From the NCBI GenBank assembly GCA_021774575.1, contig JAJFIX010000045.1, forward strand, positions 142,561 through 206,560: DNA of 64,000 bases. Direction: 5' to 3'. The stretch comes from Alphaproteobacteria bacterium. Its GTDB lineage: Bacteria > Pseudomonadota > Alphaproteobacteria > UBA6615. Below the pieces are notes generated by a model. That model made no database searches. It was given only the letters and a program-made list of their open reading frames with translations, and had not been told where the DNA came from. Positions 4,257 through 20,777 of the stretch are shown piece after piece; position 1 is the stretch's first letter, and each line of letters begins with the position of its first letter. The position numbers were made by a program, and so were the translations under genes.

Positions 4257-4634
4257 AAAACCCTCCCGTGGCAAATTTTACCTGATTTTGCGTAGACGAC
4301 GGAAGCGCGGTATCGGCACCAAATTTTGGATTGAAATACTGATACCTTAAATACCTTAAAAAACATTACATAAAAATTACCAAAACTTTATGCGGTGTGT
4401 ATTTGCGAAATATCAAGATTTGATAAAAGTTTTTAACAATTGAACAATATTTCCCCTCGGCGTCGGACGCCCAATTGACCAAAGGGTCTTTGCTAATTCC
4501 GACACCCGTTAATAAATCGGTAATCACTTTAGACATATTTTAAAATATGGATAGCACCATTTATATAGTCTCTTTGTATTGTCTTAGGATCCTTTAACGG
4601 CAATTTCGCTCGATATTTTAGGAACGCATCGCCA

Positions 4635-5834
4635 ATGAACGTCCACAAAGATAATAAATTGTTATCGGAAATCGCTCAGCCCTGGAGTTCGGTGCAGAAG
4701 TTTTCAGATGCACTACTCGGGCTGAATGTTGGCGTCGCCCTGTGGGATGCCGATGATCTGTTGGTTAAATGCAATGACTATTACCGGAATGCCCATCCCT
4801 TCGCCGCGGAGCATTTGCTGTCTGGCTCACGTTACGAGGATTTCATCCGCAGTGTTGCCAAGAATGCCTGCGTGCCTGAGGCCGCCGGACGAGAAGAGGC
4901 TTGGATCGCAGATCGTATGAAAACCCACAGAATTGCCGGAAGCATTACCGAGCAAGCGCATGGAACCAAATGGTACGAAGTCCGCAAACAGTTACTTCCC
5001 GACGGAAGTATGATCACCCTCTTTTTCGATATTACCGAACGCAAGAGAGTAGAGGAGCAGCTAGAGGCAACGCTGCAAAACCTTAAACGGTCGAACGAAG
5101 AGCTTGAGCGCTTCGCCTATGTCGCGTCCCACGACCTTCAAGAACCGCTGCGCAAAATCCAAATGTTTGGCGACCGGTTACAAAAAGATCTCGGCAGTGA
5201 GTCCTCCCAAAGCGCCGTGGAATATGTCGGCCGAATGAGGAACGCTTCGGCGCGCATGCAAGTGTTGATTAATGATCTTCTCTCTTTCTCCCGGCTCAAC
5301 ACGAACCAACAATCTTTCGAGCTTGTCGATCTCGATCAAATCGCCGCTGATGTGATTGCAAATTTGGAAGTTACCTTGGCCGAAACTGGTGCGACCGTCG
5401 ACCTGGGTCCTTTACCAGTTCTCTATGCCAATCCAACTCACATGTCGCGCCTGCTTCAAAACCTCATAGCGAATGCGATCAAATTTCATAAACCGGATCA
5501 AAAGCCGGTGGTAACAATACGTGGATCCAGCGCCGCCAACACCCAACCCCAAGGGCAAAATTTCACCAACTCCGAAATCTGCGAAATTACTGTCGCAGAC
5601 AATGGCATTGGATTTGAACCGGAATATAGCCACAAAATTTTTGAATTATTTCAGCGACTTCACGGTAGAAGCGAATTTGCGGGAACAGGACTCGGGCTGG
5701 CAATTTGCCGCCGCATTGTCGAGGCCCATAATGGCACAATTTCCGCTACAGGAATTCCTGGCAAAGGCGCGATATTTAAAATCCTCTTGCCCCTTCAACA
5801 ATCCCAGCAGGTAGAATTCGATGACGCAGCATAG
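4635..5834 (+). CDS. Cytoplasmic PAS-domain sensor histidine kinase with a bacteriophytochrome-type H-box
   Basis: No TM segment. N-terminal PAS-like region. HisKA signature ASHDLQEPLRKI. HATPase_c G-boxes (DNGIGF, GTGLGLAI). Confidence 0.85.
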   Translation: MNVHKDNKLLSEIAQPWSSVQKFSDALLGLNVGVALWDADDLLVKCNDYYRNAHPFAAEHLLSGSRYEDFIRSVAKNACVPEAAGREEAWIADRMKTHRIAGSITEQAHGTKWYEVRKQLLPDGSMITLFFDITERKRVEEQLEATLQNLKRSNEELERFAYVASHDLQEPLRKIQMFGDRLQKDLGSESSQSAVEYVGRMRNASARMQVLINDLLSFSRLNTNQQSFELVDLDQIAADVIANLEVTLAETGATVDLGPLPVLYANPTHMSRLLQNLIANAIKFHKPDQKPVVTIRGSSAANTQPQGQNFTNSEICEITVADNGIGFEPEYSHKIFELFQRLHGRSEFAGTGLGLAICRRIVEAHNGTISATGIPGKGAIFKILLPLQQSQQVEFDDAA

Positions 5835-6288
5835 CGGGATCAAAAACCATACAATAACCATCGTAATGGCCGATGACGATTGCGATGACAGAATGTTAAC
5901 GCGTGAGGCCCTAAACGACAGCAATCTTCTAAATGGATTTGATGAAGTCGAAGATGGCCAGGAACTTATGGATTATTTGCGCCGGACCGGTTCCTACAAG
6001 AATCTTGCCGGAACACCGCTGCCCGGGCTTATTTTGCTCGACCTAAATATGCCGCGCAAAGATGGGCGCGAGGCCTTAAGTGAAATTCGAGCCGATCCGG
6101 ATTTACGGAAAATTCCGGTTGTTGTTTTAACAACGTCCAAGGCGGAGGAAGATATTGCGCGAACTTATGATCTCGGCGTGAACTCTTTCATTGTTAAGCC
6201 AGTCTCGTTTGATGCCCTAACAAAGACAATGCGTGCATTCACCCAATATTGGGCAGAAGTCGTCGAACTTCCTAGACTTAGTGCCTAA
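5821..6288 (+). CDS. Single-domain response regulator (Rcp-like receiver)
   Basis: 155 aa; acidic pocket MADDDCDD, phospho-acceptor context LLDLNMPRKDG, and T/K motifs. Overlaps the upstream kinase by 14 bp. Confidence 0.85.
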   Translation: MTQHSGIKNHTITIVMADDDCDDRMLTREALNDSNLLNGFDEVEDGQELMDYLRRTGSYKNLAGTPLPGLILLDLNMPRKDGREALSEIRADPDLRKIPVVVLTTSKAEEDIARTYDLGVNSFIVKPVSFDALTKTMRAFTQYWAEVVELPRLSA

Positions 6289-6298
6289 GGAGCAAAGA

Positions 6299-7966
6299 AT
6301 GTCGAAGCCGGTACATGTTCTGTTAGTCGAAGACGACGAGGACGATTACATCCTGACCAAGGGCATGTTGATGGACTCACCCATTCGGCGATTTGAGATC
6401 AAATGGGTCGCTGATTACGACGAAGCCGTCCAGGTGATAAAATCGGCGAAATTCGACCTCTATCTGATCGATTATCGTCTTGGCAGAAAAGACGGGCTAG
6501 ACTTGGTGCGCGAAACAATCGCAGCCGGGTGCACGGCTCCTATAATTTTGCTAACGGGCCTGGATAATCGAGATATTGACGTCGAAGCAATGGAGGCCGG
6601 CGCCGCCGATTACCTTGTTAAGGGCCAAATGTCGCCGCTCATTCTGGAGCGCTCCATTCGATATGCGCTTGCTCGCCAGAATCACTTGGCAACAGAGCGA
6701 AAATCTAAGGAGATGCTCGAAAAAGCAAATAAACGCCTCGCCGAGCTTTACGAAAAAGCGCATCAGTCCGTCGATAACGTCTCCCACGAATTCCGGACGC
6801 CGCTCACCGTAGTCAAAGAATATAGCTCGATTTTACGCGACGGGCTGGGTGGCGAGATAAACGAAAAACAAAGGGAATTTCTGACAATCATCCTCGACAG
6901 GGTCGACGACTTGACCTTCCTGGTAGATGACATGCTCGACATCAGCAAACTCGAGGCCGATTTACTTTGCATTTATCGTCGGCGCACGCGCTTAAGCGAC
7001 GTTATCGACCGAATTCGCCCTATTCTTGAACGCAAGGCATTGGCCAATAACGGCAAACTAAAAATTGAAATTGACGACCCCGAACCATTCATTTATTGCG
7101 ATGGCGAAAAAATCGGTCGGGTCCTCATTAACCTCGCGGTCAATGCATATAAATTTTCAGGCGAGGGCGGCGTTGTCTCGATCATCGCCAAAGTCGACCG
7201 GGAAAGATCCGATCTGTGCGTTTCTGTTAGCGACAATGGCCCAGGTATTTCGCCAGAACAACTCCAACCCATATTTGACCGGTTCCAACAAGGAGATAGC
7301 CAGACCCGAAGTGCGACAAAGGGCTTTGGGCTTGGGTTGAATATTGCCAAAGAATTAGTCGAATTAAATTACGGCAATATTTCCGTATCTAGCGAAGTCG
7401 GAAACGGCAGTTGCTTTAGCTTCACTGTGCCCATTTTCGACCCGCTAACGGTTTTTGAACGCTATACCAGCGGCCTGTTACTGTCGGGCAACGGTTCTGC
7501 CGCTATCTCTCTAATTTCCGTAGGATTGGAACCAGGTGCGGATTTGGCGGGTGTCGAGGAGATAGAGCAAATCTTGCAAGTCCAATTGCGGCGGCACGAT
7601 TTACTCTTTGAGACGGGACCGAGCAAATGGGTCCTATGCTCAGCAGCGGACAATTCCGGCCCAGACCTTGTAATCGAAAAAATTTCAGAAGCCATAACAC
7701 AGGCTAATTCGTTCCTTCCCGAAGATGAATTGCCCCCTGTGTCGCTCAACATCATTGGGACATGGAAAGTACCAGGCGATATCGCCGGATTGTTTGCCCG
7801 ATTTAATCAAATTCGCGCTGCCGACGCCGGGAATAACAGCCATAACACGCACACGGAATTTGTGAATACCGCAACGTCAGACCTGCCGATTCCGTCGTTA
7901 CAGATTGAATTAGCTGGTAGCGAAAATGGACCAACACCAAATATAGGCGGCGAAATTGGAAGATAA
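6299..7966 (+). CDS. Response regulator-histidine kinase hybrid (REC-HisKA-HATPase) with an uncharacterised 180-aa C-terminal domain
   Basis: N-terminal REC (LLVEDDEDD, LIDYRLGRKDG), H-box SHEFRTPLT, and HATPase G-boxes (DNGPGIS, GFGLGLNI). The C-terminal 180 aa match no motif I recognise. AAGGAG precedes the 6299 ATG. The ORF-track start at 6233 is upstream of the stop of the previous gene. Confidence 0.85.
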   Translation: MSKPVHVLLVEDDEDDYILTKGMLMDSPIRRFEIKWVADYDEAVQVIKSAKFDLYLIDYRLGRKDGLDLVRETIAAGCTAPIILLTGLDNRDIDVEAMEAGAADYLVKGQMSPLILERSIRYALARQNHLATERKSKEMLEKANKRLAELYEKAHQSVDNVSHEFRTPLTVVKEYSSILRDGLGGEINEKQREFLTIILDRVDDLTFLVDDMLDISKLEADLLCIYRRRTRLSDVIDRIRPILERKALANNGKLKIEIDDPEPFIYCDGEKIGRVLINLAVNAYKFSGEGGVVSIIAKVDRERSDLCVSVSDNGPGISPEQLQPIFDRFQQGDSQTRSATKGFGLGLNIAKELVELNYGNISVSSEVGNGSCFSFTVPIFDPLTVFERYTSGLLLSGNGSAAISLISVGLEPGADLAGVEEIEQILQVQLRRHDLLFETGPSKWVLCSAADNSGPDLVIEKISEAITQANSFLPEDELPPVSLNIIGTWKVPGDIAGLFARFNQIRAADAGNNSHNTHTEFVNTATSDLPIPSLQIELAGSENGPTPNIGGEIGR

Positions 7967-8372
7967 ACCGACCGTCGTCGTCATTGACGATGACCTTCAC
8001 ATTACCGAGGCCTTGAGCCTCCGGCTGACTATGGCCGGGTGTAATGTACGAACCGCCGACAACGGCTATGCTGGCCTCGCCCTGATCAGCGAATGCAACC
8101 CGGATGCTGTTGTGCTCGACTTATCTATGCCTCAGATGGACGGAATAACAGTATTGACCAGTCTAAACGATAGCGGCCTCAACGAGGTCATCCCAGTCGT
8201 AGTTCTTACAGCTAGAGTCTCTGACAAGGTCAAACGAAGAGTAATGGAACTTGGCGCATATGGCTTCATCCAGAAACCTTATGACGCCGAATATTTGGTG
8301 ACAACATTGCAATCGGCAATTAGCAGGGGCCATCAGGATATGTCGCCAATGTCATTCACAGCACGGGGATAG
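7956..8372 (+). CDS. Single-domain response regulator
   Basis: 138 aa; VVVIDDD, VVLDLSMPQMDG, KPY. Apparent TTG start overlapping the hybrid kinase stop, so the start is uncertain. Confidence 0.75.
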   Translation: MEDKPTVVVIDDDLHITEALSLRLTMAGCNVRTADNGYAGLALISECNPDAVVLDLSMPQMDGITVLTSLNDSGLNEVIPVVVLTARVSDKVKRRVMELGAYGFIQKPYDAEYLVTTLQSAISRGHQDMSPMSFTARG

Positions 8373-8376
8373 CGTT

Positions 8377-9315
8377 ATGCCTGATCAAAAAACTGTTTTC
8401 ATTGCCGCGCACGATCCGCAATTTCTGCAACAAATTACCAAGCGCTGCGCAGGTCTTGGTCTGGACGTGCACTCGGCGTCAGACGGCATGGATGCGTTAT
8501 GGCAAATATTGAACGGTCAATTTGGATTGCTCATTCTCGATTGCGATATGCCGGGCACGGATTGGTTTGACCTTGCGGAAAAATTGAAGATAAAAAGTAG
8601 TCAAAAACCGGTTTCCCAACCGATTCCCAAACCAATTCCCATCGTCGCCCTTGGTCAAGATTCCGAGCAAGACCATGAAGAGCGCTGGGCTGCTTTAAAC
8701 GCCTATTATTGCCATAAGGGCCTTGATACCTGGGCCAATTTGCGATCCATTATTTCCAAAGAATTCGACCTTCAAACACCCGGCTCGTGCATAATCGACA
8801 CGGTTCCTGTACTCGAGACCGCCCCTGTTCGACCGCCTAAAATTCTCGTCGTCGATGACGACCTCCGAATCACGGCTGTGATGAAATATCGGCTTGAGGC
8901 ATTTGGCCTGACGGTGTTTCGGGCCAAAGACGCCACCGAAGGCGCGGCAATGGCGGTAAAGGAACTTCCAGACCTCATTATCACCGACTACAATATGCCG
9001 GGAGGTAGTTCCGGCGAAAATATGGTCTTTACTCTGAAGAGAATTGAGACAACCAAGAACATCCCGGTCATTGTCGTCACGGGCCAAAATATGGACGGGC
9101 GAACCGACTTTGTGCTGCGCCGTGAAATGTTAGGCAGGGGCGGGGCGCAGGCCTACCTGGAAAAACCATATGATTTTGACCAACTGGTCGCTGAAATACG
9201 AAAATTGATCCGTATTCCGGAAAAAACCGACGCCCCTGTAGCTCCCCAGTCAAAGGCGAGCACACAGAAAGAAGCGCATGGTTCGCCAGCAACGCTGTTA
9301 GCTGTCGGCAACTGA
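8377..9315 (+). CDS. Tandem-receiver protein (REC-linker-REC) with no output domain
   Basis: 312 aa. The C-terminal REC is canonical (ILVVDDD, IITDYNMPGG, KPY). The N-terminal REC-like domain is divergent (ILDCDMPGTD). The linker is Pro-rich. Confidence 0.75.
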   Translation: MPDQKTVFIAAHDPQFLQQITKRCAGLGLDVHSASDGMDALWQILNGQFGLLILDCDMPGTDWFDLAEKLKIKSSQKPVSQPIPKPIPIVALGQDSEQDHEERWAALNAYYCHKGLDTWANLRSIISKEFDLQTPGSCIIDTVPVLETAPVRPPKILVVDDDLRITAVMKYRLEAFGLTVFRAKDATEGAAMAVKELPDLIITDYNMPGGSSGENMVFTLKRIETTKNIPVIVVTGQNMDGRTDFVLRREMLGRGGAQAYLEKPYDFDQLVAEIRKLIRIPEKTDAPVAPQSKASTQKEAHGSPATLLAVGN

Positions 9316-9393
9316 CTTAGGGGAAATATTCCATCTGAGAAGACGGCGAAATTATATTTTCGGCGAGCGGCCGGATCGAATAATCCTTCGCCC

Positions 9394-9906
9394 TTATTCG
9401 TATTGGATCAATACCGCGAGGACGCCAGAGTAGTTGCCCGCAGGCTGGCCGGAGCCTAGATTGAGTGTGGCGCCAATCCTAATAGCGTATTGAAAATCGG
9501 CCGAATCTATTATGCCGTGGGATAGAGAAAAATTCTCCGCCGTTAAACTGTCATTTCCCGACCATAGGACCACCATTTGCACCGGTAATTTTATTTGGTA
9601 CCTGCTGTAGCCGCCGATCGAGCCAAACATTGCTGGTCGACCGCCGGCAATTTCACTGACACTGCCAGAACTATGAATTTTCGCGTCGGCGCCGATCGTC
9701 AGCGTTCCGCCTCCCACGCCGGAAACAATATGATTAACGCTGAGATGCTGTAGGGCGACGACTGACGTCGTTTCGAAAACTTGGACCGTTGCCGTGCCCG
9801 TTGCAGTCGCACCCGCCCAAACGGAAGCAATACTCGCATGAACACACACGGCGGCAATGATTGCGCCAAGCTGAAGCTTACCCCGTATTTTCCTGCAGAA
9901 CACCAT
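9394..9906 (-). CDS. Secreted beta-rich protein, DUF4402-like (SCPU/Csu-pilin-like fold family)
   Basis: 170 aa with a signal peptide. Gly/Thr/Ser-rich with a C-terminal ...GATLNLGSGQPAGNYSGVLAVLIQYE motif resembling DUF4402. No adjacent chaperone or usher. Confidence 0.45.
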   Translation of the reverse strand: MVFCRKIRGKLQLGAIIAAVCVHASIASVWAGATATGTATVQVFETTSVVALQHLSVNHIVSGVGGGTLTIGADAKIHSSGSVSEIAGGRPAMFGSIGGYSRYQIKLPVQMVVLWSGNDSLTAENFSLSHGIIDSADFQYAIRIGATLNLGSGQPAGNYSGVLAVLIQYE

Positions 9907-10061
9907 CGCAAATATATTTGGCCTTCAACAATTTCTGGGCGGAAAGAGCTCGAAAATGCTTATATGGCACCGTTACGATATCATGGCCTTGTGTGAGCAC
10001 TTTCGTTCAACTGTTAAAATTTATCTAACAGAAATTTAAGAGATCAGGCTTGAGCTAAATA

Positions 10062-13000
10062 TTACTCGTGCGGCCCCAGCCTCGCCCGAATTCGCTTTGC
10101 CAATTCCGCCTTACTATAGGGCTTACGCAATAGGTCTCCCACAAGTTCAGCGCGAAACGTCGAATCACCTAATTCTTGCTGAGACCAATCCGCAGCAAAG
10201 CCCGATGTGAGCAATATTTTTATATCCGGACGCGCCCTATTTGTGTCCATTGCAAGACGAAACCCATCGATTCCGCTCGGCATGACGATATCGGTAAATA
10301 ATAAATCAATTTTTTCCGGCCCACCAATAATCTCAAGGGCTTGCTTACCATCGCTTGCCGCAAGCGTGTCATACCCCAACTCAGTCAAATGCGAGACGGC
10401 AATATCGAGTAGATCCTCTTCATCTTCGACGACAAGGATAACCTCACTACCTTGAGGCAGCACCTCTTCGTTTTTACTCTCGATCTCCGCCTCATCCGAG
10501 AGCCCGATTGCTCGGGGCAAAAAGAGTCGAAACACCGTGCCTTTCTCGAGTTCGGACTCCAACTCAATATGACCGCCGGAACGTTCGACAAACCCATACA
10601 CCATACTAAGGCCTAGGCCAGTTCCTTTACCTCTCGGCTTCGTCGTGAAAAATGGGTCAAATATACGCTCGCGGAGTTCTTCGGCTATGCCCGTACCCGT
10701 ATCGGATACCGAGACCATGACAAATTCTCCGGGCCGACTTCCTGGATGACGTTTTACATATTCCTGGTCCAGCACTTTATTGGCAGTCAAGAGTTTCAGC
10801 GTGCCGCCATCAGGCATAGCATCGCGGGCATTTAATGTAAGATTGACGATTACGTCATCAAAATCCCCCGGATCAAAATCGGCATTCCATAAATCTTGGG
10901 ATAGCTGAGTAATCACCGCAATCCCAGAGTTTCCGGATTTAGAAATCATTTCTCTAAGATCGAGCAAGCATTTGTTCGCCGATGAAATCTGTTTTCCAGA
11001 GGAGGTAACACGCGAAAAGCTCAGCAGTCGCTCGGTAAGCGCGGCACCACGATTAACCCCCCGAAGTGCGGTCTCAATATGTTTCATCGCCACCTGATCT
11101 TCGGATCTAATCACTTTTAACAATTCCAAATTTCCCATGACGATACTCAAAATATTATTGAAATCATGGGCAATCCCACTCCCCATTTCACCGACCGCCT
11201 GCATTTTTTGCGCATGGTATAGCTGTTCGTCATGGGCCCTTTCGTCGGTTATATCGTGCAAAACACCAGTGGCACGAGTTGCTTTTCCGTCTTCGTCACG
11301 CAAGCATTTTGCTTGGGTTTGAAATAGACGGTAACTACCATCTTTTTTCCGCAATCGATATTCGCACGACCATGTGTTCTCACCTCCGTCGAGAAAGGCT
11401 TCAAATTCTTTGATAATGCGAGGACGTTCTTCAGGGTGCAAATGCGCCCTTAACGTATCTTGGCTGGAGCTAAGTTCACCAATGTCATAGCCCAGCATTT
11501 CGCCAAATCTCTCGGAGAAAAACATCTGCTTTCTCGCGACTTCTAAATCCCAGACCGCGTCCGAAATGGCACCCGTCGCCAACCGGTACCGTTCCTCATT
11601 TTCCTGCAGGGCGGTGGCAATTTTTCTCTGCTGTGTAATATCGGTTGAAATGGTTCCGACATATTGGATATTGCCATGCGCATCATGTATCGGAAATTTT
11701 GTCGCCTGAATTGCAATTTCCTCACCTTCGTTTTGCCACGATATGACACGCATCATATCTACCCCGGTGCGAAAAACTTGCTCATCAAAACCGGCCGATG
11801 CTGTGGCTAAAGGATGCTCGGAAACATTGCGCGGATTTTCCCAGAGCGCTTCATTCAAACCAATGCCCAGACGCTCTCTCGCAACGGCGTTGGCGATTTT
11901 CAAATCACCCTTTCGGTCTTTTACACTGATGCCGGTCGGCGCATTATCCAGGATTGCAGCCAGAAGTCCCTCACTTTCCTGGCGCGCGAATTCGGCTTCT
12001 TTCAACTCCGTAACATCGCGCCCTGTTGACTGATATTCCGCAATTTCTCCATTTGCCCCGGGAATTGCCGTAACCAGCCATTGATACGCTCGCTTCTCTC
12101 CATCCGCGCGAGTCAATACGCCGTGAAAAGTTATCGGTTCTGAGCCCGGCTTAATCTGCGCAATACTCGCCATAAATCTTTCCCGATCGGCCGGTTCCAT
12201 TCTCTGGCCGAACGGTGTGCCAACCAGTTCATCGAAAGATTTTTGATAGACCCGCTGATAGGCCAAATTGACGAAGCTGATGCTTTCGTCGGGCCACCAG
12301 CGGCTTACGGCCTCCTGCTGGCTATCGACAACGGCACGATAGCGCCCATCACTTTTTTCCAGGGCGCCAGTCGTTTTCATATGTTCCGCTATTTCGGCCG
12401 TAAGCGCCTCCTTACTCGCTCGCTCTGAAATTACTCTGTTAACGGTTGACGCAAATAGAAAAGCAAGGGCGATGCCAAGCACTGCGAAAAGGTTTCGGGC
12501 TACGCCCGTGTTCTCAACACCATGTTCAAGGGCTAAGGCTTGCCAAAAAACAAACGTAATAGTCAGAATTGCCAGGGCAGAAGATATGCCAAGCCAATGC
12601 GGAAATCGCACCAAATTATGCCGCGCTGTTTGCCAGGCAAGAGCCAACAATCCGACGCCCAAAGCAACAAAGCCCAAGGACGTATGCAATGCCATGCGAG
12701 TGAATCGCCCCCAGCCATATGCCCCTTCGAGCCCGACTACATAGCCGAGTGTGGCAACAGTTCCTAGGCCCAGAACTGCCGATCCAATTAATCCAAGGAG
12801 TAGTCCGTCGCCGCGACCTTTATCTATTTTCGATAATAGAATTGCGGCGGCAACAAGCATGAACGATAGGGCGGTATTTGGCGCCATTCGGCCCGGATGC
12901 GAGGTTTGCACGGTTACATAGTGCTGCATCAGAAACTGATCAATGCCCAGGTCGATACTAAAAACATACTGAGATATGGTTAGAAGCCCGAGCGCCATTA

Positions 13001-13247
13001 CGGTCACCGCAAGACCTGTTGCCAGTCGATCTTGCGCAATGACTAAAGCAGTCAGCGCCAGCCCACTCAATACAAATCCAAGAGCCGTATTGTATTGCAT
13101 AGGCACGAGGGCAGGGCTCAATTGAACGAGCAAAACAGAATGGGTGTGCCAGCCAATAAATGCCACAAAGCCCAAAAACGCTGCCATTCCTCCGGCAACG
13201 AAACCAAGAATTCTGTATTTTTCAGTCGAGCAATTATTAAATCTCAT
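10062..13247 (-). CDS. Hybrid sensor histidine kinase: polytopic membrane sensor domain, multiple PAS, HisKA, HATPase, C-terminal REC
   Basis: 1061 aa with about 8 predicted TM helices at the N-terminus. H-box [21 protein letters not shown]-boxes, and a C-terminal receiver ([24 protein letters not shown]). Confidence 0.9.
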
Positions 13248-13312
13248 GGACCCAAAAATCTATTATCCAGAAAAGACCAAATGAGTACGTACGCCCGCCT
13301 ATTTTGCCCCTT

Positions 13313-15934
13313 TCACCCTTCCTTAATGGCTTCGGTGTCCAAAGCCTGCCTCACTTGGATTGCCAGCTCGCCTCGACTATAGGGCTTGTGTAATAAATTA
13401 CCGGATAGGTTTGCACGAAATTCCGATTCGCCATGTTCACTTTCAGCCGGAGAAACGGCAAAGCCCGATGTGAGCAATATTTTTATATCTGGTCTTATTT
13501 TTTTCGCATTCTCCGCCAACTGAAAACCGTCGACTCCATTGGGCATTACGACATCGCTAAACAGCAAATCAATCCCTTGGGGCCCACGAATTATTTCAAG
13601 CGCCCGCGCCCCTTCATGCGCAATCAAGGTCCGATAGCCGAGCCCTTCCAAATGAGAGACAGCAACGCTAGCCAAATCTGCCTCGTCGTCAACGACCAAA
13701 ACCGTTTCGGTCCCTTGGGGCAAATTTTTGGCCTCCAACTTCCCCCATACCGCAGACTCTCCCACACCGATCGCCCGAGGCAAATAGAGACGAAACGTCG
13801 TCCCTCTTCCCGGTTCGGAATATACTTTTATGTGACCGCCGGATTGTTCCACAAAGCCATAGGTCATGCTGAGACCAAGGCCCGTGCCTTTTCCCCGTTC
13901 TTTAGTTGAGAAAAATGGCTCAAATATTCTTTCCTTGACGTCATTTGTCATGCCCATGCCGGTATCGCAAACGGACACCATAACAAATTCCCCGGCACTG
14001 CTTCCTGGGTTTAATTTTGCATAATCTTCGTCCAGCACCTTATTTTCCGTTTCGAAAGTCAAGATGCCACCATCGGGCATCGCATCACGGGCATTTAGGG
14101 CGAGATTGACAATGACGTCACCAAATTCCCCGGGGTCGAATTCAGCAGCCCATAAATCATCGGCAAGTTTATTGGTCACGTTGACACCGACAGTCACAGA
14201 TTTTTCGATCATGTCCTGAAGTTCAATGATGCACTGGTTTGCCGATGTTCTTATTTTCTTCTTTGGTTCAACACGTGAGAACCTGAGCAGGCTTTCGGTC
14301 AGCGCAGCGCCGCGAGAAACGCCCCGTAGAGCCGTATCAATGCGATTCAGCGCCTTCGAATCGTCGCGACAATTTGATTTTAGAAGTTCTAAATTTCCAA
14401 GAACTATACTGAGAATATTATTGAAGTCGTGGGCGATGCCGCCACCCAACTCGCCGACCGCCTGCATTTTTTGTGCATGATGCAATTGTTGCTCATGGGA
14501 TCGTTCATCGGTGATATCTCGCAAAATCCCAGTAATACGTTCTACTTCACCCTTATCGGATCGAACTAGCTGGGTTTTGACCGAAAACAGCCGATATCCA
14601 CCGTCCTTTTTTCGCAAACGATACTCGCGGGTCAAGTAAGCCTGATCACCGGCTAGGAAGGCTTCGAAATGACGAATAATTTCGTCGCGCTCATCTGGAT
14701 GCAGTAGCGACCTCAATGTCTCGGCTTCCGATGGGAGCTCGCCTAAATCGTAGCCAAGCATTTCCCCAAGCCGGTCGGAAATATATGTCTTGCCGTCGGC
14801 TACGGTCCGATCCCAAATCGCATCGGATGATGTTGTGGCTGCGAGTCTGTAGCGTTCCTCGCTTTCTTGAAGGGCCGCCTCGATATTCTTCTGACGGGTA
14901 ATGTCCCGCCCCACACCTTGATACTCAACCGGTGCCCCATTGCCGTCAAAAACAGCAGTGATATTCCACGAAAAATATTGGGCTTCACCGTCTGTCCCAA
15001 AGATCTCTGTTTCCACTGTGAGCGGGCCTGAACCTGATCTCATTTCCCTAATCGAGCGAGATACGGTCACTCGATCCACCGGGTTTACCTGCTGACCGAT
15101 GGGCTTTCCAATGAGTTTTCGGGAGGGCAGGCCATATAATTTTTCATATGAGGTGTTTACAAAACTTAGTGTTTCATCGGGCAGCCAGCGGCATATTATA
15201 TCTGACTGGCTATCGATAACCGCACGATACCTATCCTCGCTTGCGCGCAACCGATTTTCGGCGCCGCTGATCTTGGCCACAACATAGGATAGGATTAGGA
15301 GCCCGATACCGACACCTGCCCAAAACACGAGATTTATGACCAACCGGATATCGGATTGACTATCTTTGCCCCCTGCCTCAAATTCAGCCGCTTTATTTGC
15401 TGCAAATATGATCAGAATATCCATTGCGGCAGATAGATCGGTAATATAAGCCGTTTGCGTCTCAGAATTTAAGGCCTTTGCCGCCAACTCACCTTTTGTG
15501 CGAGCAACTTCGACAATTTCCACATTCTGCGATTCCCAGCTATTAAAAATTTCCACAACATTTTCGACATTCGATATGTCGCCGAGAAACCGCCCCCGAA
15601 CAATATCGATATTGGCAAGAAACTCGGCCTTCGCCATTTGCATATCTCGTATCGCCGCATCAAATTCGTCGTCGTTCCGAGATACGATTGAGCGTTCCAA
15701 ATATATTTGTATATGGGCAATATTAGTGTTGGCTTGCAGCAATGCATTACTGACCGCAAGCGGGTGATCATAGATGCGGGTTGTCAGGTCGGCCAAATTA
15801 TCAATTCGGCGGACTGTCCATATCTGCACGCCTATCGCGATCAGTGCCAGGACCGCAAAGCCAATAACCGCCCCCCGCACAATCGGGTTTATAGAACGGC
15901 GCATCACGAACATATTTCCTTTATCCTCCGTCAA
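13313..15934 (-). CDS. Hybrid sensor histidine kinase: TM, periplasmic helical sensor, TM, PAS x2, HisKA, HATPase, REC (paralog of the upstream kinase)
   Basis: 873 aa with two TM segments flanking a roughly 180-aa periplasmic domain. From the PAS region onward it is about 60% identical to the 10062-13247 kinase. It also shares a 32-bp identical DNA tract with it. Confidence 0.9.
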   Translation of the reverse strand: MTEDKGNMFVMRRSINPIVRGAVIGFAVLALIAIGVQIWTVRRIDNLADLTTRIYDHPLAVSNALLQANTNIAHIQIYLERSIVSRNDDEFDAAIRDMQMAKAEFLANIDIVRGRFLGDISNVENVVEIFNSWESQNVEIVEVARTKGELAAKALNSETQTAYITDLSAAMDILIIFAANKAAEFEAGGKDSQSDIRLVINLVFWAGVGIGLLILSYVVAKISGAENRLRASEDRYRAVIDSQSDIICRWLPDETLSFVNTSYEKLYGLPSRKLIGKPIGQQVNPVDRVTVSRSIREMRSGSGPLTVETEIFGTDGEAQYFSWNITAVFDGNGAPVEYQGVGRDITRQKNIEAALQESEERYRLAATTSSDAIWDRTVADGKTYISDRLGEMLGYDLGELPSEAETLRSLLHPDERDEIIRHFEAFLAGDQAYLTREYRLRKKDGGYRLFSVKTQLVRSDKGEVERITGILRDITDERSHEQQLHHAQKMQAVGELGGGIAHDFNNILSIVLGNLELLKSNCRDDSKALNRIDTALRGVSRGAALTESLLRFSRVEPKKKIRTSANQCIIELQDMIEKSVTVGVNVTNKLADDLWAAEFDPGEFGDVIVNLALNARDAMPDGGILTFETENKVLDEDYAKLNPGSSAGEFVMVSVCDTGMGMTNDVKERIFEPFFSTKERGKGTGLGLSMTYGFVEQSGGHIKVYSEPGRGTTFRLYLPRAIGVGESAVWGKLEAKNLPQGTETVLVVDDEADLASVAVSHLEGLGYRTLIAHEGARALEIIRGPQGIDLLFSDVVMPNGVDGFQLAENAKKIRPDIKILLTSGFAVSPAESEHGESEFRANLSGNLLHKPYSRGELAIQVRQALDTEAIKEG

Positions 15935-16065
15935 AAAAATTGGAGGGAAAATTTACTGTCGCGACCGGTGCGATACGGCCTTGTAAGTTCGAGCCTTGAT
16001 AGCTGGGTTAAGATATTGAGATACGGTTGCGCTGGCAATGGCCGCCCATTACTCATCATCACCGG

Positions 16066-16815
16066 CTATGCAGCTGCTATTCCGCCACCGGGTCCTTGTC
16101 CGACATGAATTCTTCCACCGCCTGCTGGATTGATACCCAAGGGGTCGCGCAACCGATACCCATACCCCCACACAGTTTCAATGTAGTCGTCCCCACCGAG
16201 GTTGTTCGAAAGTTTTTTGCGTAGGTTGCAGATGAACACGTCAATGACAGTCTCATCATGTGATTCGGCCCCCTCATAGAGATGCTGAATGAAGGCCAGC
16301 TTCGCCAAAATTGTCCCGCGCCGCATACTAAGCAATTCAATAATTTTATATTCCGTGGCCGTCAGATGAATGAAACAATCGTCGATTTCGACGGTGCGCG
16401 CTTCCAAATTTACCCGCATCTTGCCGACCTCGACAATCGACGTCGAATGCCCGCGAAACCGGCGAACGAGAGCTTGGATGCGCGCGATAAACTCGCGCTC
16501 ATCAAATGGCTTGGTTAGGCAATCATCCGCGCCAGCATTAAACCCCTCAATTTTAAAACCAATGCCCGACGAATCCGACATTATGAGGATTGGCGTGTCG
16601 TTTTTGACCATCCTCAACTTCTTTAGGAGTTCGTAGCCAGGCATGCCATTCGAACCAAGATCCACAACGATAATGTCATAGTCCTGCAGCTTATTGATTT
16701 CCACATTACTGTCATTCAGCTCGTGCGAATGGCAAATGAACCCAACCGACGTTAACATCGACGGGACAACATTTTCCTTCACCGACCCCTCAAAGAACAG
16801 CAAAGCCCTCATCAA
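16066..16815 (-). CDS. CtrA-family (OmpR-type) response regulator paralog with a degenerate receiver acidic pocket and a Gly-rich C-terminal tail ending AAA
   Basis: 249 aa, collinear with CtrA. Shared blocks include DVFICNLRKKL, IETVWGYGYRLRDP and TATEYKIIELLSMRRGT. The N-terminal LLFFEGS replaces the conserved LLIEDDS. The C-terminus is ...GPGGGIAAA. Confidence 0.75.
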   Translation of the reverse strand: MMRALLFFEGSVKENVVPSMLTSVGFICHSHELNDSNVEINKLQDYDIIVVDLGSNGMPGYELLKKLRMVKNDTPILIMSDSSGIGFKIEGFNAGADDCLTKPFDEREFIARIQALVRRFRGHSTSIVEVGKMRVNLEARTVEIDDCFIHLTATEYKIIELLSMRRGTILAKLAFIQHLYEGAESHDETVIDVFICNLRKKLSNNLGGDDYIETVWGYGYRLRDPLGINPAGGGRIHVGQGPGGGIAAA

Positions 16816-16859
16816 AACCTCCTTTTTCGCCCACAGACCCTCCGTAAGAGTGTGAGCAA

Positions 16860-17199
16860 CGCCCCCCCCAAACTAGAGTAAAACGACTTGCTTGAATGAC
16901 TGTAGCGGGAGAATGTGCATCCAATTTCCTACAAATGTGAAAAAATTATTAAAATTTTTTCCGGCCAATTATCGAAAAGAAATAAACACTCACCATTATT
17001 TAACCATTTGTTTATATTTGTTATTAAAATAAAAATGATATTTTAACTATATAATAACAATTACATTAAAATAAATAATAAAATTTTTTACATTAATACT
17101 ATTGCAATTCTTTTATACGAAAACATCATACACCTTTTGTATTGGTGCAACAGTTAGGTCCTATCCTGATATTGTCGCTAAAGCAGAGGGAATTTTCGG
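16860..17199. other. Extremely AT-rich intergenic island (about 15-20% GC) forming a divergent promoter region
   Basis: Long A/T runs (aaaaaattattaaaatttttt, ttattaaaataaaaatgatattttaac, and others). No ORF. Flanked by about 55% GC coding sequence. Confidence 0.8.
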
Positions 17200-18321
17200 A
17201 TGAAAAATTGGGAAGAGGCCACCTCCAAAATGGACGAAACAAATGCATGTTTCGGCATTCGGAAAATCTTTCCGGCTGGTCTCGGGCTGCTATTTGCCAC
17301 CACAGTTGCATTCGGCGTGGCACATGATACGTCGCTCTCAGTCTCAGTTGCCTCGACAAACATCGATCAGCATTCAACAAGCGGCCTGAATGTTGCAGCG
17401 TTTGCGAATGCCGGCGGCTCAGAAATATTGACACCTTTTAGCGCCGCTCAATTGATTGATTGGCCAAATAACAGCGAACAAATAAGCCATGGCATCAAAA
17501 TTGGGATGATTGACGGAGGCGTCAACAAGAACCATCCGGCGCTACACAACCAGGATATTACGACGCGAGAATTCACAGCAAACGGCGCCACACCAGTCCA
17601 ATTGGACCATGGGACCGCCGTTGCGTCCCTTCTTGTCGGCAACCCAAGCACCGGAGACCTGCGCGGGTTACTACCAAATGCCACCCTATTTGCGGCAAAT
17701 ATTTTTAGCCAAGACCGGAATGGGCGCATTATCGGAGACCCAATGGCTTTTTCGAACGCCATCGATTGGCTTATCGATATGGACGTTTCAGTCATCAATG
17801 TCAGCCTTACCGGCAAAACCAACGGCCATATGGAGCGCGCGATCAACAAAGCAGTGGAGCACGGCATTCTTGTGGTCGCCGCCGCCGGAAACAATCGAGG
17901 CAATAGCGGTCGAGACTATCCCGGCGCCTATCGAAATGTCCTGGCGGCAACCGCGGTTGATGCGGATCTGAATATTTATGCCTATGCAAGTCTTGGCAGT
18001 CACGTTGATTTCGCCGCACCGGGGGTTTCCCTACGAATGGCCTCCAATAGTGGATCGGAAGTATTAAGCGGAACGTCGTTTGCCGCGCCATTTCTCACCG
18101 CCACTGTCGCGCTGTCGTTACGAGACCAGGGCGCGATCAACGCCAGCACCATTCGAACACGGCTTTCAAATACGGCCAGGGACCTCGGTAGGGCCGGGCT
18201 CGACCAAGTTTTTGGGTACGGTCTGCTTGATGCCACCAGCAATGAAGGCTTGGTGGCCCAAGTTGACCGGAGGCCTAGCCGGGTCACCCCGATAGGGGCC
18301 CGCAGGTTAACAGCGAATTAA
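17200..18321 (+). CDS. Subtilisin-like serine protease (peptidase S8), secreted or membrane-anchored
   Basis: 373 aa. Catalytic triad contexts IGMIDGG (Asp), DHGTAVAS (His) and GTSFAAPF (Ser). A hydrophobic segment sits at residues 24-40. RBS GAGGGA. Confidence 0.85.
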   Translation: MKNWEEATSKMDETNACFGIRKIFPAGLGLLFATTVAFGVAHDTSLSVSVASTNIDQHSTSGLNVAAFANAGGSEILTPFSAAQLIDWPNNSEQISHGIKIGMIDGGVNKNHPALHNQDITTREFTANGATPVQLDHGTAVASLLVGNPSTGDLRGLLPNATLFAANIFSQDRNGRIIGDPMAFSNAIDWLIDMDVSVINVSLTGKTNGHMERAINKAVEHGILVVAAAGNNRGNSGRDYPGAYRNVLAATAVDADLNIYAYASLGSHVDFAAPGVSLRMASNSGSEVLSGTSFAAPFLTATVALSLRDQGAINASTIRTRLSNTARDLGRAGLDQVFGYGLLDATSNEGLVAQVDRRPSRVTPIGARRLTAN

Positions 18322-18495
18322 ACGAGGTAAACAACACCAACCTCGATAATTACCCGAATGAATTAGACTATCCCGGTTCTTTCGTAATTTCCCCAAGTAC
18401 TTAGATCGATTAAATCATTGTCGACCATCGCTAGAGGATCAGCCTCGGTGCCTGCGCTTCGACAAATGACGGATTAGCTTGGAAAGGACGAACAA

Positions 18496-19176
18496 TTGCG
18501 TGCTCTCATTATTGAAGACGACATTGCGATGGCACAGAGCATTCGCATGACCCTCGAGTCAGATGGCTTCACCTGCGCCAATACCGATCGCGGGCGGGAC
18601 GGCATCTATATCGCCGCAGCGCAAAAATACGACATCATCGTCCTTGACCTGATGCTACCCGATATCGACGGCTACAAAGTATTATCTTCCCTTAGGGGAA
18701 AGAAAAACTCCACGCCGGTATTGATGCTTTCGGGATTTGATGATGCCGATAAAAAGATTGATGGACTGAAAGCCGGGGCCGACGATTTCCTCGGCAAGCC
18801 TTTCAATGCGAGGGAATTAATCGCCCGCGCGCGCGCGATCATTCGCCGCTCTGAAAGGGCAGCTGATACCGTCGTTAAGACAGGAAAAGTAAGCGTCAAT
18901 TTGACCGCTCATACTGTCGATATTGGCGGTAGGTTGCTGAGATTGGCGAGCAAGGAGTCTAGTCTCCTCGAATTGCTCAGCAAGGATAAGGGGAAAATAG
19001 TTTCCCGAGCGACCATCAGCGACCATCTATACCCTGGCACAAACGGCCCCAACGACCTGAGGATCATTGACGTTTTTGTCAGCAAGCTGCGAAAAAAATT
19101 GTCCCGAGCAACGGACGGTGAGACCCATATCGATACATTGTGGAAGCGCGGCTATGTTCTCCGCGATCCCGTTTAA
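18496..19176 (+). CDS. CtrA-family (OmpR-type) response regulator paralog with an intact receiver
   Basis: 226 aa, collinear with CtrA across both domains (MRALIIEDD, IIVLDLMLPDIDG, KPF, IIDVFVSKLRKKL, WKRGYVLRDP). I estimate about 45% identity to canonical CtrA. Confidence 0.8.
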   Translation: MRALIIEDDIAMAQSIRMTLESDGFTCANTDRGRDGIYIAAAQKYDIIVLDLMLPDIDGYKVLSSLRGKKNSTPVLMLSGFDDADKKIDGLKAGADDFLGKPFNARELIARARAIIRRSERAADTVVKTGKVSVNLTAHTVDIGGRLLRLASKESSLLELLSKDKGKIVSRATISDHLYPGTNGPNDLRIIDVFVSKLRKKLSRATDGETHIDTLWKRGYVLRDPV

Positions 19177-19188
19177 AAGCCAAAACAG

Positions 19189-19914
19189 CTATAATTTGGT
19201 CACCGTCGCAGAGAAAATATAGCCGACCCCGCGAATAGTTTTGATGATTTCAGGGTGCCTGGGATCCGGTTCAATTTTTTTCCTCAATCGACTCACTAGC
19301 CCGTCGATACCGCGATCGAAACCTGCCCATTCACGACCATGGACGTTGTTGAGAAGAGAGTCTCGCGTATGGACCCGCTGTGGCGCATCGGCTAATGCGC
19401 GAAGAAGCTCGAATTCTGCTGTGGTGAGGGGGGTATCCGTACCCTCCGGCGATCGAAGATTTCGAGCCGCCAGATCGAACTGCCAGCCGCAAAACCCCAG
19501 CACGGTTCGCCCTTCTACTCCATGGGGGTTTCCGTTGTGAGAGGTGCCAATTTTTCGACGGCGCAGAACCGCATTGACCCGCGCCACTAATTCGCGGGGA
19601 CGAAACGGCTTCGTTACGTAATCGTCAGCACCAAATTCCAGTCCCAGAACATGGTCGGTCTCGCTCGTTCTACCGGAAACAATAATTATACCGGCGTCAG
19701 ATCGATCACGAATTTCTTTGGCCAAGGCGAGTCCGTTATCGTCTGGCAACGCCAAATCCATCAAGTAAAGGTCGATACCACGCTCTTTTTCAAGGGCGCG
19801 AAATTCCGCCGCATTTTTCGCCGATAAAATACGATGGCCTTCCCCCGCCAAAATACCACTAATGAGCTCACGGACATCCGGGTCATCTTCGGTAATTAGG
19901 ATAGTGGCCTTCAT
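19189..19914 (-). CDS. OmpR/PhoB-family response regulator (REC plus winged-helix), orphan
   Basis: Start chosen at MKATILITEDD, where GGAGAGG lies upstream. Receiver motifs and a C-terminal trans_reg_C (LTTAEFELLRAL, IKTIRGVGYIF). No adjacent cognate kinase. Confidence 0.8.
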   Translation of the reverse strand: MKATILITEDDPDVRELISGILAGEGHRILSAKNAAEFRALEKERGIDLYLMDLALPDDNGLALAKEIRDRSDAGIIIVSGRTSETDHVLGLEFGADDYVTKPFRPRELVARVNAVLRRRKIGTSHNGNPHGVEGRTVLGFCGWQFDLAARNLRSPEGTDTPLTTAEFELLRALADAPQRVHTRDSLLNNVHGREWAGFDRGIDGLVSRLRKKIEPDPRHPEIIKTIRGVGYIFSATVTKL

Positions 19915-20051
19915 GTCCTCTCCGCGCCAATCATGGCGAATTATTCGAACAGTCATTTATCTTACTGATAATTAGTGTTTACTATACCATCGGCATTTTA
20001 GCAAAAATTATTGAAATCTTCGATTGCCCGCGAATGCCTCTCTGCCAAGGC

Positions 20052-20450
20052 TCATTCTCCGTTACCATCAACTGTATCGGCGGCATCGAGTAACTTCCTA
20101 ACAGTCGAGGTTAAACGATCAATTGTGTATGGCTTTGGCAAAAACTCGACACCTGCACCAGAAAGCTTTTGGGTAACCTGCTCGCTATCTGTGTAGCCTG
20201 AGGTGTAAATAACCCTAATATCAGGAATGCGATCGCGCACGACCTGCGCGACATCGATACCGTTCATTCCTCCCGGCAGCATCATGTCCGTTAATAGAAG
20301 ATCAATCTTGGGGGCCCCATCCAGCATCGCAACAGCTGACGGGCCATCCTCCGCCTCGACAACGGAATAGCCAAGTGTGGATAGGACAGTCGCCATATAC
20401 GCCCGGACGTCAGGGTCGTCCTCAACGACAAAGATCGTCTCTCCGGACAT
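20052..20450 (-). CDS. Single-domain response regulator
   Basis: Start chosen at MSGETIFVVEDD, where GAGGAGAGGAAG lies upstream. LLLTDMMLPGGMNG and KPY. Confidence 0.8.
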   Translation of the reverse strand: MSGETIFVVEDDPDVRAYMATVLSTLGYSVVEAEDGPSAVAMLDGAPKIDLLLTDMMLPGGMNGIDVAQVVRDRIPDIRVIYTSGYTDSEQVTQKLSGAGVEFLPKPYTIDRLTSTVRKLLDAADTVDGNGE

Positions 20451-20777
20451 AAACTTCCTCTCCTCGGCAAAACCAAACACTATATATTTTCACTACGTTT
20501 TCACAAAACATCGCCGGGATTCGCAATATCTCATACATAGCGGCACCGGCGTTACAGACCATGAAGGCAGTCACTTAAGACAGGTACAATAGCATAGGCC
20601 AGCTTGCTTCGTCTCAGTGAAGTTTCCAGTGCGCTCTCGGAAAAAGAGAATTCGAATTTGCCTGGAACACACTATCAAGTGCGAGTCGTACCGCATCCAG
20701 CCAAGTCGCGTCGCCTAGGCCTTCTCGCCGGTGGTGATCAGGAGTGTGCATCAATTCTATTCATCTTTCTCGGTTTA

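Follow-up and report, generated by a model that had tools for sequence, protein, structure and literature searches.

A CtrA-derived response regulator with a pseudo-receiver domain and a glycine-rich tail ending in Ala-Ala-Ala

Introduction

CtrA is the central regulator of the cell cycle and of motility in Alphaproteobacteria, and it is controlled both by phosphorylation and by ClpXP proteolysis. Can a CtrA-type regulator dispense with the first of these controls and rely on the second? The question is raised by a gene at positions 16066 to 16812, minus strand, in a 64,000-nucleotide stretch of DNA (referred to here as the window) from an alphaproteobacterium of the UBA6615 lineage (assembly GCA_021774575.1, contig JAJFIX010000045.1, positions 142,561 to 206,560). 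An initial annotation of the sequence had described the product as a CtrA paralog with a damaged acidic pocket and an unusual C-terminal extension, and had suggested that it is under proteolytic control and insensitive or atypical with respect to phosphorylation.

On balance we lean towards regarding this protein as a lineage-specific, CtrA-derived atypical regulator of the OmpR/PhoB type that would act independently of phosphorylation, with its activity set by its abundance and its tail serving as a handle for ClpXP. If this is true, a paralog that holds the DNA-binding head and the proteolysis signal of CtrA but none of its phosphorylation chemistry would separate the two controls naturally, and the protein could act as a competitor or a partner of CtrA.

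The gene and its product

The gene and its translation signal are as follows.

16066..16812, minus strand: coding sequence of the CtrA-derived atypical response regulator, 248 amino acids (aa), stop codon at 16066-16068
16818..16824, minus strand: Shine-Dalgarno sequence AAGGAGG, read from the sequence, 5 nt upstream of the ATG at 16812

The open reading frame (ORF) 16066..16815 on the minus strand was confirmed in the sequence, with a TTG at 16815 directly preceding the ATG at 16812. The ATG is likely to be the true start, because AAGGAGG lies 5 nt upstream and because the public gene call of the same DNA (P0001, 248 aa, N-terminus MRALLFFEGS) begins there; the exact 249-aa ORF starting at the TTG has no record among known proteins. 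Residues are therefore numbered 1-248 from the ATG. An independent Logan assembly (run SRR15505518) agrees at every one of 1,351 bases spanning the gene and both of its flanks, so that the glycine-rich tail and the stop codon are not artefacts of a single assembler.

Pfam identifies a receiver domain (Response_reg, PF00072, 56.9 bits) and a winged helix (Trans_reg_C, PF00486), although the PF00072 match is weaker than usual and begins only at residue 19. The AlphaFold2 model, built on a 45-sequence alignment with a mean predicted local distance difference test (pLDDT) score of 75.5, likewise comprises a receiver and a winged helix, and its top Foldseek matches are full-length OmpR/PhoB regulators; the receiver of Brucella CtrA, taken from the complex of ChpT with the CtrA receiver (4QPJ), matches the receiver of the model at a template modelling (TM) score of 0.8. 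The N-terminal receiver fold and C-terminal Trans_reg_C winged helix that characterise the OmpR/PhoB family are thus seen by Pfam, AlphaFold2 and Foldseek alike. The GC content at third codon positions (GC3) is 0.58, similar to that of neighbouring genes and of the rest of the window; horizontal acquisition, considered on the grounds of composition, was set aside since this resemblance leaves no clear signal.

Receiver domain

The elements of the receiver that differ most tellingly from canonical CtrA were located in alignments, the acidic pocket in three of them (A1, A3 and A4, of which A1 contains a Caulobacter CtrA sequence for illustration only, all counts being based on database sequences).

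16786..16794, minus strand: codons of F7-E8-G9, the degenerate acidic pocket (canonical E7-D8-D9)
16636..16662, minus strand: codons of D51-G59, the beta3-alpha3 loop, DLGSNGMPG as opposed to canonical DLMLPDxDG
16573..16578, minus strand: codons of S79 (the conserved Thr/Ser, kept) and D80 (T+1, canonical Gly)
16510..16521, minus strand: codons of C98 (K-3, canonical Tyr, the aromatic residue of Y-T coupling) to K101 (the kept Lys)

Residue by residue, the comparison with canonical CtrA reads as follows.

Residue before the acidic pair: E7 in canonical CtrA, F7 here; changed
DD1, first of the acidic pair: D8, E8; conservative
DD2, second of the pair and direct Mg2+ ligand: D9, G9; lost
D, phospho-acceptor: D51, D51; kept
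D+2: M53, G53; changed
D+4: P55, N55; changed
D+8: G59, G59; kept
T: S79, S79; kept
T+1: G80, D80; changed
K-3: Y98, C98; changed
K: K101, K101; kept

A pseudo-receiver is defined, in a 2025 review by Bourret and colleagues, as a receiver that lacks any one of five catalytic residues (PMC12632262). DD2 is a direct ligand of Mg2+, and a large survey found both DD positions to be acidic in essentially all true receivers; among pseudo-receivers, about 80% have a non-acidic DD2 and about 65% retain the Asp (PMC12632262). The same review describes the roles of the Pro at D+4, which forms a gamma-turn, and of the Gly at D+8, and reports that pseudo-receivers are depleted in Pro at D+4, in small residues at T+1 and in the aromatic K-3 residue of Y-T coupling (PMC12632262).

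The complete CtrA active site, with its two acidic residues, Asp, Ser/Thr and Lys, is broken here by Gly9 at DD2. Because the domain matches PF00072 and has Gly at this position, it is, as far as its residues can tell, a pseudo-receiver under the published definition. It displays the whole of the associated pattern: a non-acidic DD2, loss of the D+4 Pro, a bulky T+1 residue and loss of the K-3 aromatic. With Asp51 present, it stands outside the subset of aspartate-less receivers of the Rem and RitR type. The initial annotation had the Mg-binding acidic pair replaced altogether, which is accurate for its second residue (D9G) and overstated for the first (only D8E), the preceding E7 having become Phe; its proposals that the putative phospho-acceptor Asp is retained and that the protein is atypical with respect to phosphorylation both agree with the alignments, the latter being strengthened at the sequence level by the published definition and by four further hallmark changes (E7F, P55N, G80D and Y98C).

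The changes extend beyond the active site. Helix alpha1 (residues 10-21, SVKENVVPSMLT) has few residues in common with canonical CtrA and contains a Pro; we take this helix, from work on two-component specificity, to be the one with which the CtrA receiver docks to ChpT. A pseudo-receiver of this kind would not be able to serve the CckA-ChpT relay.

DNA-binding domain and dimer surface

In the winged helix, the two elements that contact DNA are of recognisable CtrA type.

16210..16257, minus strand: recognition-helix region, residues 186-201, DETVIDVFICNLRKKL (canonical ELKIIDVFVCKLRKKL), 10 of 16 residues identical to canonical CtrA
16141..16188, minus strand: wing region, residues 209-224, DYIETVWGYGYRLRDP (canonical NYIETVWGRGYMLRDP), 13 of 16 residues identical

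Among the substitutions in them, K196N in the recognition helix and R217Y in the wing affect positions at least 95% conserved in canonical CtrA and may shift the DNA-binding specificity. The DNA-binding domain had been called very close to that of CtrA, a description that suits the recognition helix and the wing but not the domain as a whole, which is 58% identical. On the dimerisation surface, helix alpha5 is largely retained (R106, E107, A110, R111, A114, R117 and R118); helix alpha4 is altered at four conserved positions (D85G, K89E, L91F and G92N), and AlphaFold2 models this helix (residues 81-90) with low confidence.

C-terminal tail

The tail follows directly on the wing.

16069..16140, minus strand: C-terminal tail, residues 225-248, LGINPAGGGRIHVGQGPGGGIAAA, 24 residues ending in IAAA, present in both assemblies

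AlphaFold2 predicts residues 226-248 to be disordered (pLDDT about 30-34). The Ala-Ala end that had been read from the sequence is borne out by both assemblies, and the unique extension proved to be so only in part: an extension is present and its Gly-richness is unique, but canonical CtrAs are tailed as well and variable tails with a median length of 15 residues are also found in CtrA-like cluster representatives. Nine of the 24 residues are Gly (37%), compared with at most 20% in any other CtrA-like tail of 10 residues or more.

How telling is the terminal Ala-Ala? Among the 93 CtrA-like representatives with tails of up to 60 residues, 21 end in -AA, about a seven-fold excess over the 3.0 expected when each tail is shuffled (2,000 trials, with a maximum of 10 across all 93); in the pseudo-receiver subset the figures are 13 of 50 against 1.8 expected from tail shuffles. 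Chance does not account for the terminal Ala-Ala in the CtrA-like family. Green fluorescent protein becomes an adaptor-independent ClpXP substrate when it carries the last 15 residues of Caulobacter CtrA (bioRxiv 10.1101/301606), and TacA and ShkA are stabilised when their C-terminal Ala-Gly is replaced by Asp-Asp (PMC7010744). An unstructured C-terminus ending in Ala-Ala, as in degrons of the CtrA, TacA and ShkA type, is what the predicted disorder and the IAAA end provide here. Because the tail is predicted to be disordered and terminal -AA is some seven-fold over-represented in the family, the protein may be under proteolytic control, and a ClpXP signal in its tail is a reasonable inference.

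Of the 54 proteins predicted in the window three have an Ala-Ala end, where an Ala content of 10.7% would lead one to expect about 0.6, and all three are signalling proteins of the gene island described below. Apart from the CtrA-derived regulator these are:

3786-4274, minus strand: stand-alone receiver, ending in EEAA
4635-5834, plus strand: PAS kinase, ending in DDAA

Such ends on three signalling proteins of one island may point to shared control of the ClpXP type.

Derivation from CtrA

The NCBIfam CtrA equivalog NF045991 is the best family match of the protein (263.9 bits), followed by PhoP at 128 bits. The score lies below the equivalog cut-off of 350, as opposed to 426.9 bits for a canonical CtrA from another alphaproteobacterium (P0002). 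In a search of 5.8 billion proteins the closest non-self matches are canonical CtrAs at 51-54% identity over residues 1-225; the next 119 matches listed, which are 50-56% identical, cover about 84-99% of the protein and include sequences from Pelagibius, Kiloniella, Rhodovibrio and Limimonas, are nearly all named CtrA where they are named. Collinearity with CtrA, as proposed initially, holds by alignment over residues 1-225, and in nine CtrAs that were fetched and aligned the similarity ends at about residue 225, the tails being unrelated.

In an alignment of the protein with 42 canonical CtrAs (A3), 164 positions show at least 95% conservation among the canonical proteins. The present protein differs at 62 of these and keeps 102; the receiver accounts for 81 of the positions, of which 47 are kept, and the DNA-binding domain for 83, of which 55 are kept. 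Taken domain by domain, the receiver is 49% identical to canonical CtrA and the DNA-binding domain 58%.

A scan with peptides specific to the protein, covering one genome per species (185,579 species), returned no matching locus, and an apparent 60% partial match (L049) turned out to be an ordinary CtrA fragment. An exhaustive HMMER search of 1.84 billion cluster representatives gave nothing above 57% identity, and that one match was partial. Judged by these comparisons, the protein is clearly derived from CtrA and is an orphan without a known ortholog in the collections searched. A neighbour-joining grouping with five pseudo-receiver representatives on long branches may reflect long-branch attraction and was not used. 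The source lineage itself is poorly sampled: of ten window proteins that were checked against 15 billion proteins, eight (Zwf, Edd and glucokinase among them) are singletons at the 90% identity level and two are unrecorded. To judge by the best CtrA matches, it is probably Rhodospirillales-like; a megablast comparison of 8 kb of the window with plasmids matched zwf only, at 71-72%.

Probable paralogy and extra copies of ctrA

A second CtrA-like gene lies 1.7 kb away.

18496..19176, plus strand: second CtrA-like response regulator (P0121), 226 aa, with an intact E-D-D / D / S / K site

P0121 has no C-terminal tail, ending in LRDPV and thus without the Ala-Ala signal. On the CtrA model it reaches 268 bits, again short of the cut-off of 350, and it is also an orphan, with canonical CtrAs at 55-57% identity as its nearest relatives. 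In P0121 it is the DNA-binding domain that has diverged further and the receiver less so, the reverse of the situation in the pseudo-receiver protein. The two are 41% identical and have only four derived residues in common; for these reasons, and because P0121 ranks 76th of the 138 neighbours of the pseudo-receiver protein, a recent tandem duplication was rejected.

Canonical ctrA loci with enough flanking sequence have fliI-fliJ upstream on the opposite strand and cheR-cheB-cheY-cheW downstream, an arrangement seen on unrelated metagenome and genome contigs (L002, L054-L058, L062-L064 and L066). This context is absent here, where two-component genes and a gene for an S8 peptidase are found instead. 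The score below the CtrA cut-off, the changes at 62 of 164 near-invariant positions, the nearby P0121 and the missing fliI-fliJ/che context together make it well supported, if short of proven, that the gene is a paralog of ctrA and not the canonical copy. The paralogy proposed by the initial annotation therefore gains from score, divergence, context and the second CtrA-like gene, and lacks the final piece of proof in that the canonical ctrA of this genome was not located: four candidate canonical CtrAs (P0083, P0214, P0002 and P0123) all come from samples other than that of the source genome.

Extra ctrA-type genes are in themselves nothing out of the ordinary, occurring on small and large plasmids of Methylobacterium and sphingomonads and on one Mesorhizobium plasmid. 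In all three plasmid-collection copies that were aligned the pocket is still acidic (E-D-D or E-D-E), and none is a pseudo-receiver; the copy on a 37.6-kb Methylobacterium plasmid is annotated as CtrA, that on a Sphingosinicella plasmid as a generic response regulator. On the Sphingosinicella and Methylobacterium plasmids (L059/L060), one ctrA lies beside recA and DNA methyltransferase genes and the other beside parA and a toxin-antitoxin pair. The third copy, on a 1.46-Mb Paracoccus replicon among housekeeping genes (ligA, recG and mnmA), is probably the canonical ctrA of that genome.

Related pseudo-receivers among CtrA-like proteins

A further alignment (A4) brought together 147 of the best 150 representatives from the exhaustive search (P0361-P0507), the present protein, P0121 and P0002, and the five catalytic positions were read in the 120 representatives that align over their full length. 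At least one catalytic receiver residue is missing in 66 of the 120, a proportion to be read with the caveats that the ranking is by similarity to a pseudo-receiver query, that clustering at 50% collapses canonical CtrAs and inflates divergent singletons, and that some N-terminal calls may reflect wrong starts or chimeric gene calls. The DNA-contacting elements are equally CtrA-like in both groups: the recognition helix matches CtrA at 11.6 of 16 positions in the 66 pseudo-receivers and 11.7 in the intact group, the wing at 10.1 and 10.0 of 16, respectively, and most of the 66 show recognisable KIIDVFICKLRKKL and ETVWGRGY motifs. By sequence, CtrA-derived pseudo-receivers are clearly recurrent, and many of them end in -AA. 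A literature search for CtrA paralogs and pseudo-receiver CtrAs found no description of such proteins.

These observations invite a broader conjecture, to which we would give only limited credence. The present protein could be one member of a widespread and so far undescribed grade of CtrA-derived pseudo-receivers that keep the CtrA DNA-binding head and the Ala-Ala signal for ClpXP and are blind to the CckA-ChpT relay; at CtrA-type sites they would be rivals or partners of CtrA, with synthesis and proteolysis as their only switches, and in this particular case they would be wired to private CckA-like hybrid kinases and an intact CtrA-like regulator. If true, this would add a phosphorylation-independent arm to the cell-cycle or developmental control of Alphaproteobacteria.

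Genomic neighbourhood

The gene lies within a 17-kb island of two-component genes at about 3.7-20.5 kb (about 3786-20480), which comprises five stand-alone receivers, two kinases, two large hybrid kinases and three OmpR-type regulators. Among the island ORFs scanned, no Hpt or ChpT-type protein was seen. The GC content of the island (0.47-0.52) is somewhat below that of the sugar-metabolism genes downstream (0.53-0.59). The features closest to the gene are listed here.

13313..15901, minus strand: CckA-like hybrid histidine kinase with the Pfam architecture 4HB_MCP-PAS-PAS-HisKA-HATPase-REC; an 862-aa call sets its start at 15901
10062..13247, minus strand: second CckA-like hybrid histidine kinase, further downstream
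16813..17199: divergent intergenic region between the CtrA-derived gene and the S8 peptidase gene, 387 bp, 32% GC
17000-17007: TTAACCAT, the sole copy in the 64-kb window, in that intergenic region
17200..18321, plus strand: exported S8 subtilase (mycosin-like), divergent from the CtrA-derived gene and situated between the two CtrA-like genes
18307-18321: TTAA-N7-TTAA (TTAACAGCGAATTAA), the sole perfect copy in the 64-kb window, 175 bp upstream of the second CtrA-like gene

The first hybrid kinase gene is on the same strand as the CtrA-derived gene and begins 164 nt downstream of it, and no terminator-like site is present in the 164-nt gap. Both hybrid kinases carry intact receiver domains and have CckA-like cores, scoring 326 and 329 bits on the NCBIfam CckA (Brucella) model, which has a cut-off of 1000. 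A paralogous copy of the whole cell-cycle module was considered and rejected, since the single-domain receivers and kinases of the island are only weakly, and below threshold, similar to CpdR, DivK and CckA.

The AT-rich intergenic region 16813..17199 has no Rfam match. Enrichment of CtrA boxes was examined with shuffles of the whole window and with local shuffles; counts are at chance (local P about 0.05 for TTAACCAT), and the two sites, each in one of the two promoter regions and a hint at most, were not used as evidence.

Orthologs of the S8 peptidase with 47-59% identity occur on the four contigs examined (L050-L053), one of them from the sibling run SRR15505515. On these contigs the peptidase gene is never beside a CtrA-like gene, being divergent instead from a plain HisKA/HATPase kinase, with YbjQ beyond it on L051-L053. 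Tracing an orthologous cluster through the peptidase was accordingly abandoned, as the contigs of the orthologs are without a CtrA-like gene. Since these orthologs are not beside CtrA-like genes elsewhere, the arrangement appears to be specific to the lineage of the present regulator.

The window from about 21000 to 60000 is devoted to carbohydrate metabolism, including two sets of sugar ABC transporter genes, an Entner-Doudoroff block (glucokinase, Zwf, Edd and neighbours) at about 44.4-50.1 kb and genes resembling those of inositol catabolism (PfkB/DUF2090 and a TPP enzyme) at 55.3-59.1 kb.

Proposed mechanism and alternatives

How might such a regulator work? According to the reading that we favour, the protein would no longer take up phosphoryl groups by the normal Mg2+-dependent reaction, or would be cut off from the canonical relay. 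It would still fold, probably dimerise, and bind DNA at CtrA-like or related sites. Since phosphorylation seems to have been lost while the fold and DNA binding seem to have been kept, activity would be set mainly by the amount of protein, with synthesis from the AT-rich divergent promoter region on the one hand and, on the other, removal via the disordered tail ending in Ala-Ala-Ala, a type of C-terminal signal by which ClpXP recognises CtrA. Two CckA-like kinase genes follow directly downstream, and an intact CtrA-like regulator is encoded next to the gene, which suggests that the protein may work inside a local module made up of these proteins.

It is important to point out what weighs against this reading. 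Phosphorylation, DNA binding, dimerisation and turnover of the protein are all inferred from its sequence. The retention of D51, S79, K101 and an acidic DD1 could permit residual or unusual phosphorylation, and with K196N and R217Y in DNA-contacting elements the binding site may not be a CtrA box at all; CtrA-box matches near the gene are indeed at chance level. No orthologs that could reveal purifying selection on the tail or the pocket were found in the collections searched. Degradation of CtrA in vivo also needs determinants in the receiver domain as well as adaptors, as is known from Caulobacter, and the rewritten receiver may lack the degradation determinants of canonical CtrA. A Gly-rich tract of this kind is not seen in other CtrA-like tails, and small side chains give ClpX a weak grip (PMC6677533); the residues critical for its grip are the seven that abut the folded domain (PMC6677533), which here are a mixed set (LGINPAG).

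The retained D51, S79, K101 and acidic DD1 would also suit a working phospho-acceptor, in which Glu8, Asp51 and a backbone carbonyl bind Mg2+ and the CckA-like kinases feed the protein via an Hpt in an ordinary local phosphorelay. The gene order fits this idea, with two hybrid kinases bearing intact receivers on the same strand from 164 nt downstream and no terminator-like site in the gap. We consider it unlikely, though deserving of attention, as essentially no true receiver lacks an acidic residue at either DD position, DD2 being a direct metal ligand (PMC12632262); moreover, P55N, G80D, Y98C and M53G alter further positions of phosphorylation chemistry or allosteric read-out, and the scanned ORFs of the island revealed no Hpt or ChpT-type gene. 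Alternatively, the protein could act mainly through protein contacts, either as a heterodimer with canonical CtrA or P0121 or by binding the adjacent kinases and modulating phosphotransfer. There are precedents in the WhiI-BldM heterodimer and in CmrT, which has been proposed to modulate phosphotransfer in CmrRST (PMC12632262), the gene has an intact paralog and kinases as neighbours, and much of the alpha4-beta5-alpha5 surface is kept (K87, D96, D97, R106, E107, A110, R111, A114, R117 and R118). A regulator that only bound kinases would have no need of a well-conserved DNA-reading helix and wing, however, and alpha4 is both altered (D85G, K89E, L91F and G92N) and modelled with low confidence, so that a role of this kind strikes us as rather doubtful.

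The same divergence could be read as decay, with the gene a functionless ctrA duplicate that still happens to hold an ORF. Changes at 62 of 164 near-invariant positions on a very long branch, the missing orthologs in the collections searched and the poorly modelled alpha4 speak for such a relic. The ORF is nevertheless full-length and preceded by a strong ribosome-binding site, its GC3 is like that of neighbouring genes, and the model folds (mean pLDDT 75.5). The changes are also uneven, sparing the core, alpha5, recognition helix, wing and terminal Ala-Ala and falling on active-site and docking positions, and this pattern is found again in dozens of independent CtrA-like clusters; decay is improbable on these grounds. 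Finally, the protein might be the one true CtrA of an organism whose lineage branches deeply. Poor sampling (eight of ten window proteins being singletons at 90% identity) leaves room for this, as does the fact that the canonical copy was not located and that the source genome falls outside the species-representative collection. Yet P0121, with its intact pocket, is 1.7 kb away and equally distant from canonical CtrA, the present protein scores 264 bits where the cut-off is 350 and a canonical CtrA from another alphaproteobacterium reaches 427, the conserved flagellar and chemotaxis context is absent, and a pseudo-receiver would be of no use to the CckA-ChpT phosphorelay; taken together, these points make the idea scarcely tenable.

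Comparison with known systems

Canonical CtrA and the present protein have in common the recognition helix IDVFxCxLRKKL and wing IETVWGxGY, the residues D51, S79 and K101, and a disordered tail ending in Ala-Ala. The differences are that the latter scores below the family cut-off, has lost DD2, carries a rewritten alpha1, K196N and R217Y and a Gly-rich tail, and is encoded in a two-component gene island as opposed to the fliI-fliJ/che context. Extra ctrA copies on plasmids of Methylobacterium, Sphingomonadales and Mesorhizobium are likewise CtrA-type genes outside the canonical locus, but the three that were examined all have an acidic pocket, in contrast with the degenerate pocket described here.

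By its sequence the protein belongs with the known atypical OmpR/PhoB regulators that have pseudo-receivers, and it is not a new kind of system. HP1043/HsrA, ChxR, GlnR, NblR and CmrT (PMC12632262) have the same two-domain architecture with at least one catalytic residue missing, and GlnR and RamR also keep the Asp; these five regulators come from other lineages, whereas the present protein is derived from CtrA and has a CtrA-type C-terminal Ala-Ala. Constitutive dimerisation and phosphorylation independence have been shown for these known pseudo-receiver regulators and may extend to this one. How such regulators are switched off is an open point, for which regulated degradation is one proposed answer (PMC12632262).

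The nearest described analogue of the CtrA-derived pseudo-receivers is Rem, an orphan OmpR-like motility regulator of Rhizobiales, which is also an alphaproteobacterial OmpR-type protein with a degenerate receiver and is regarded as constitutively active, its control lying in its abundance and in a protein partner (bioRxiv 10.1101/2021.06.24.449765). Rem has Glu50 in place of the phospho-acceptor and so is aspartate-less; in the present protein Asp51 is still there, and it is the metal ligand that has gone. As a single orphan this gene is of moderate interest; CtrA-derived pseudo-receivers with conserved Ala-Ala termini, as a broader class, deserve to be followed up and may prove more useful.

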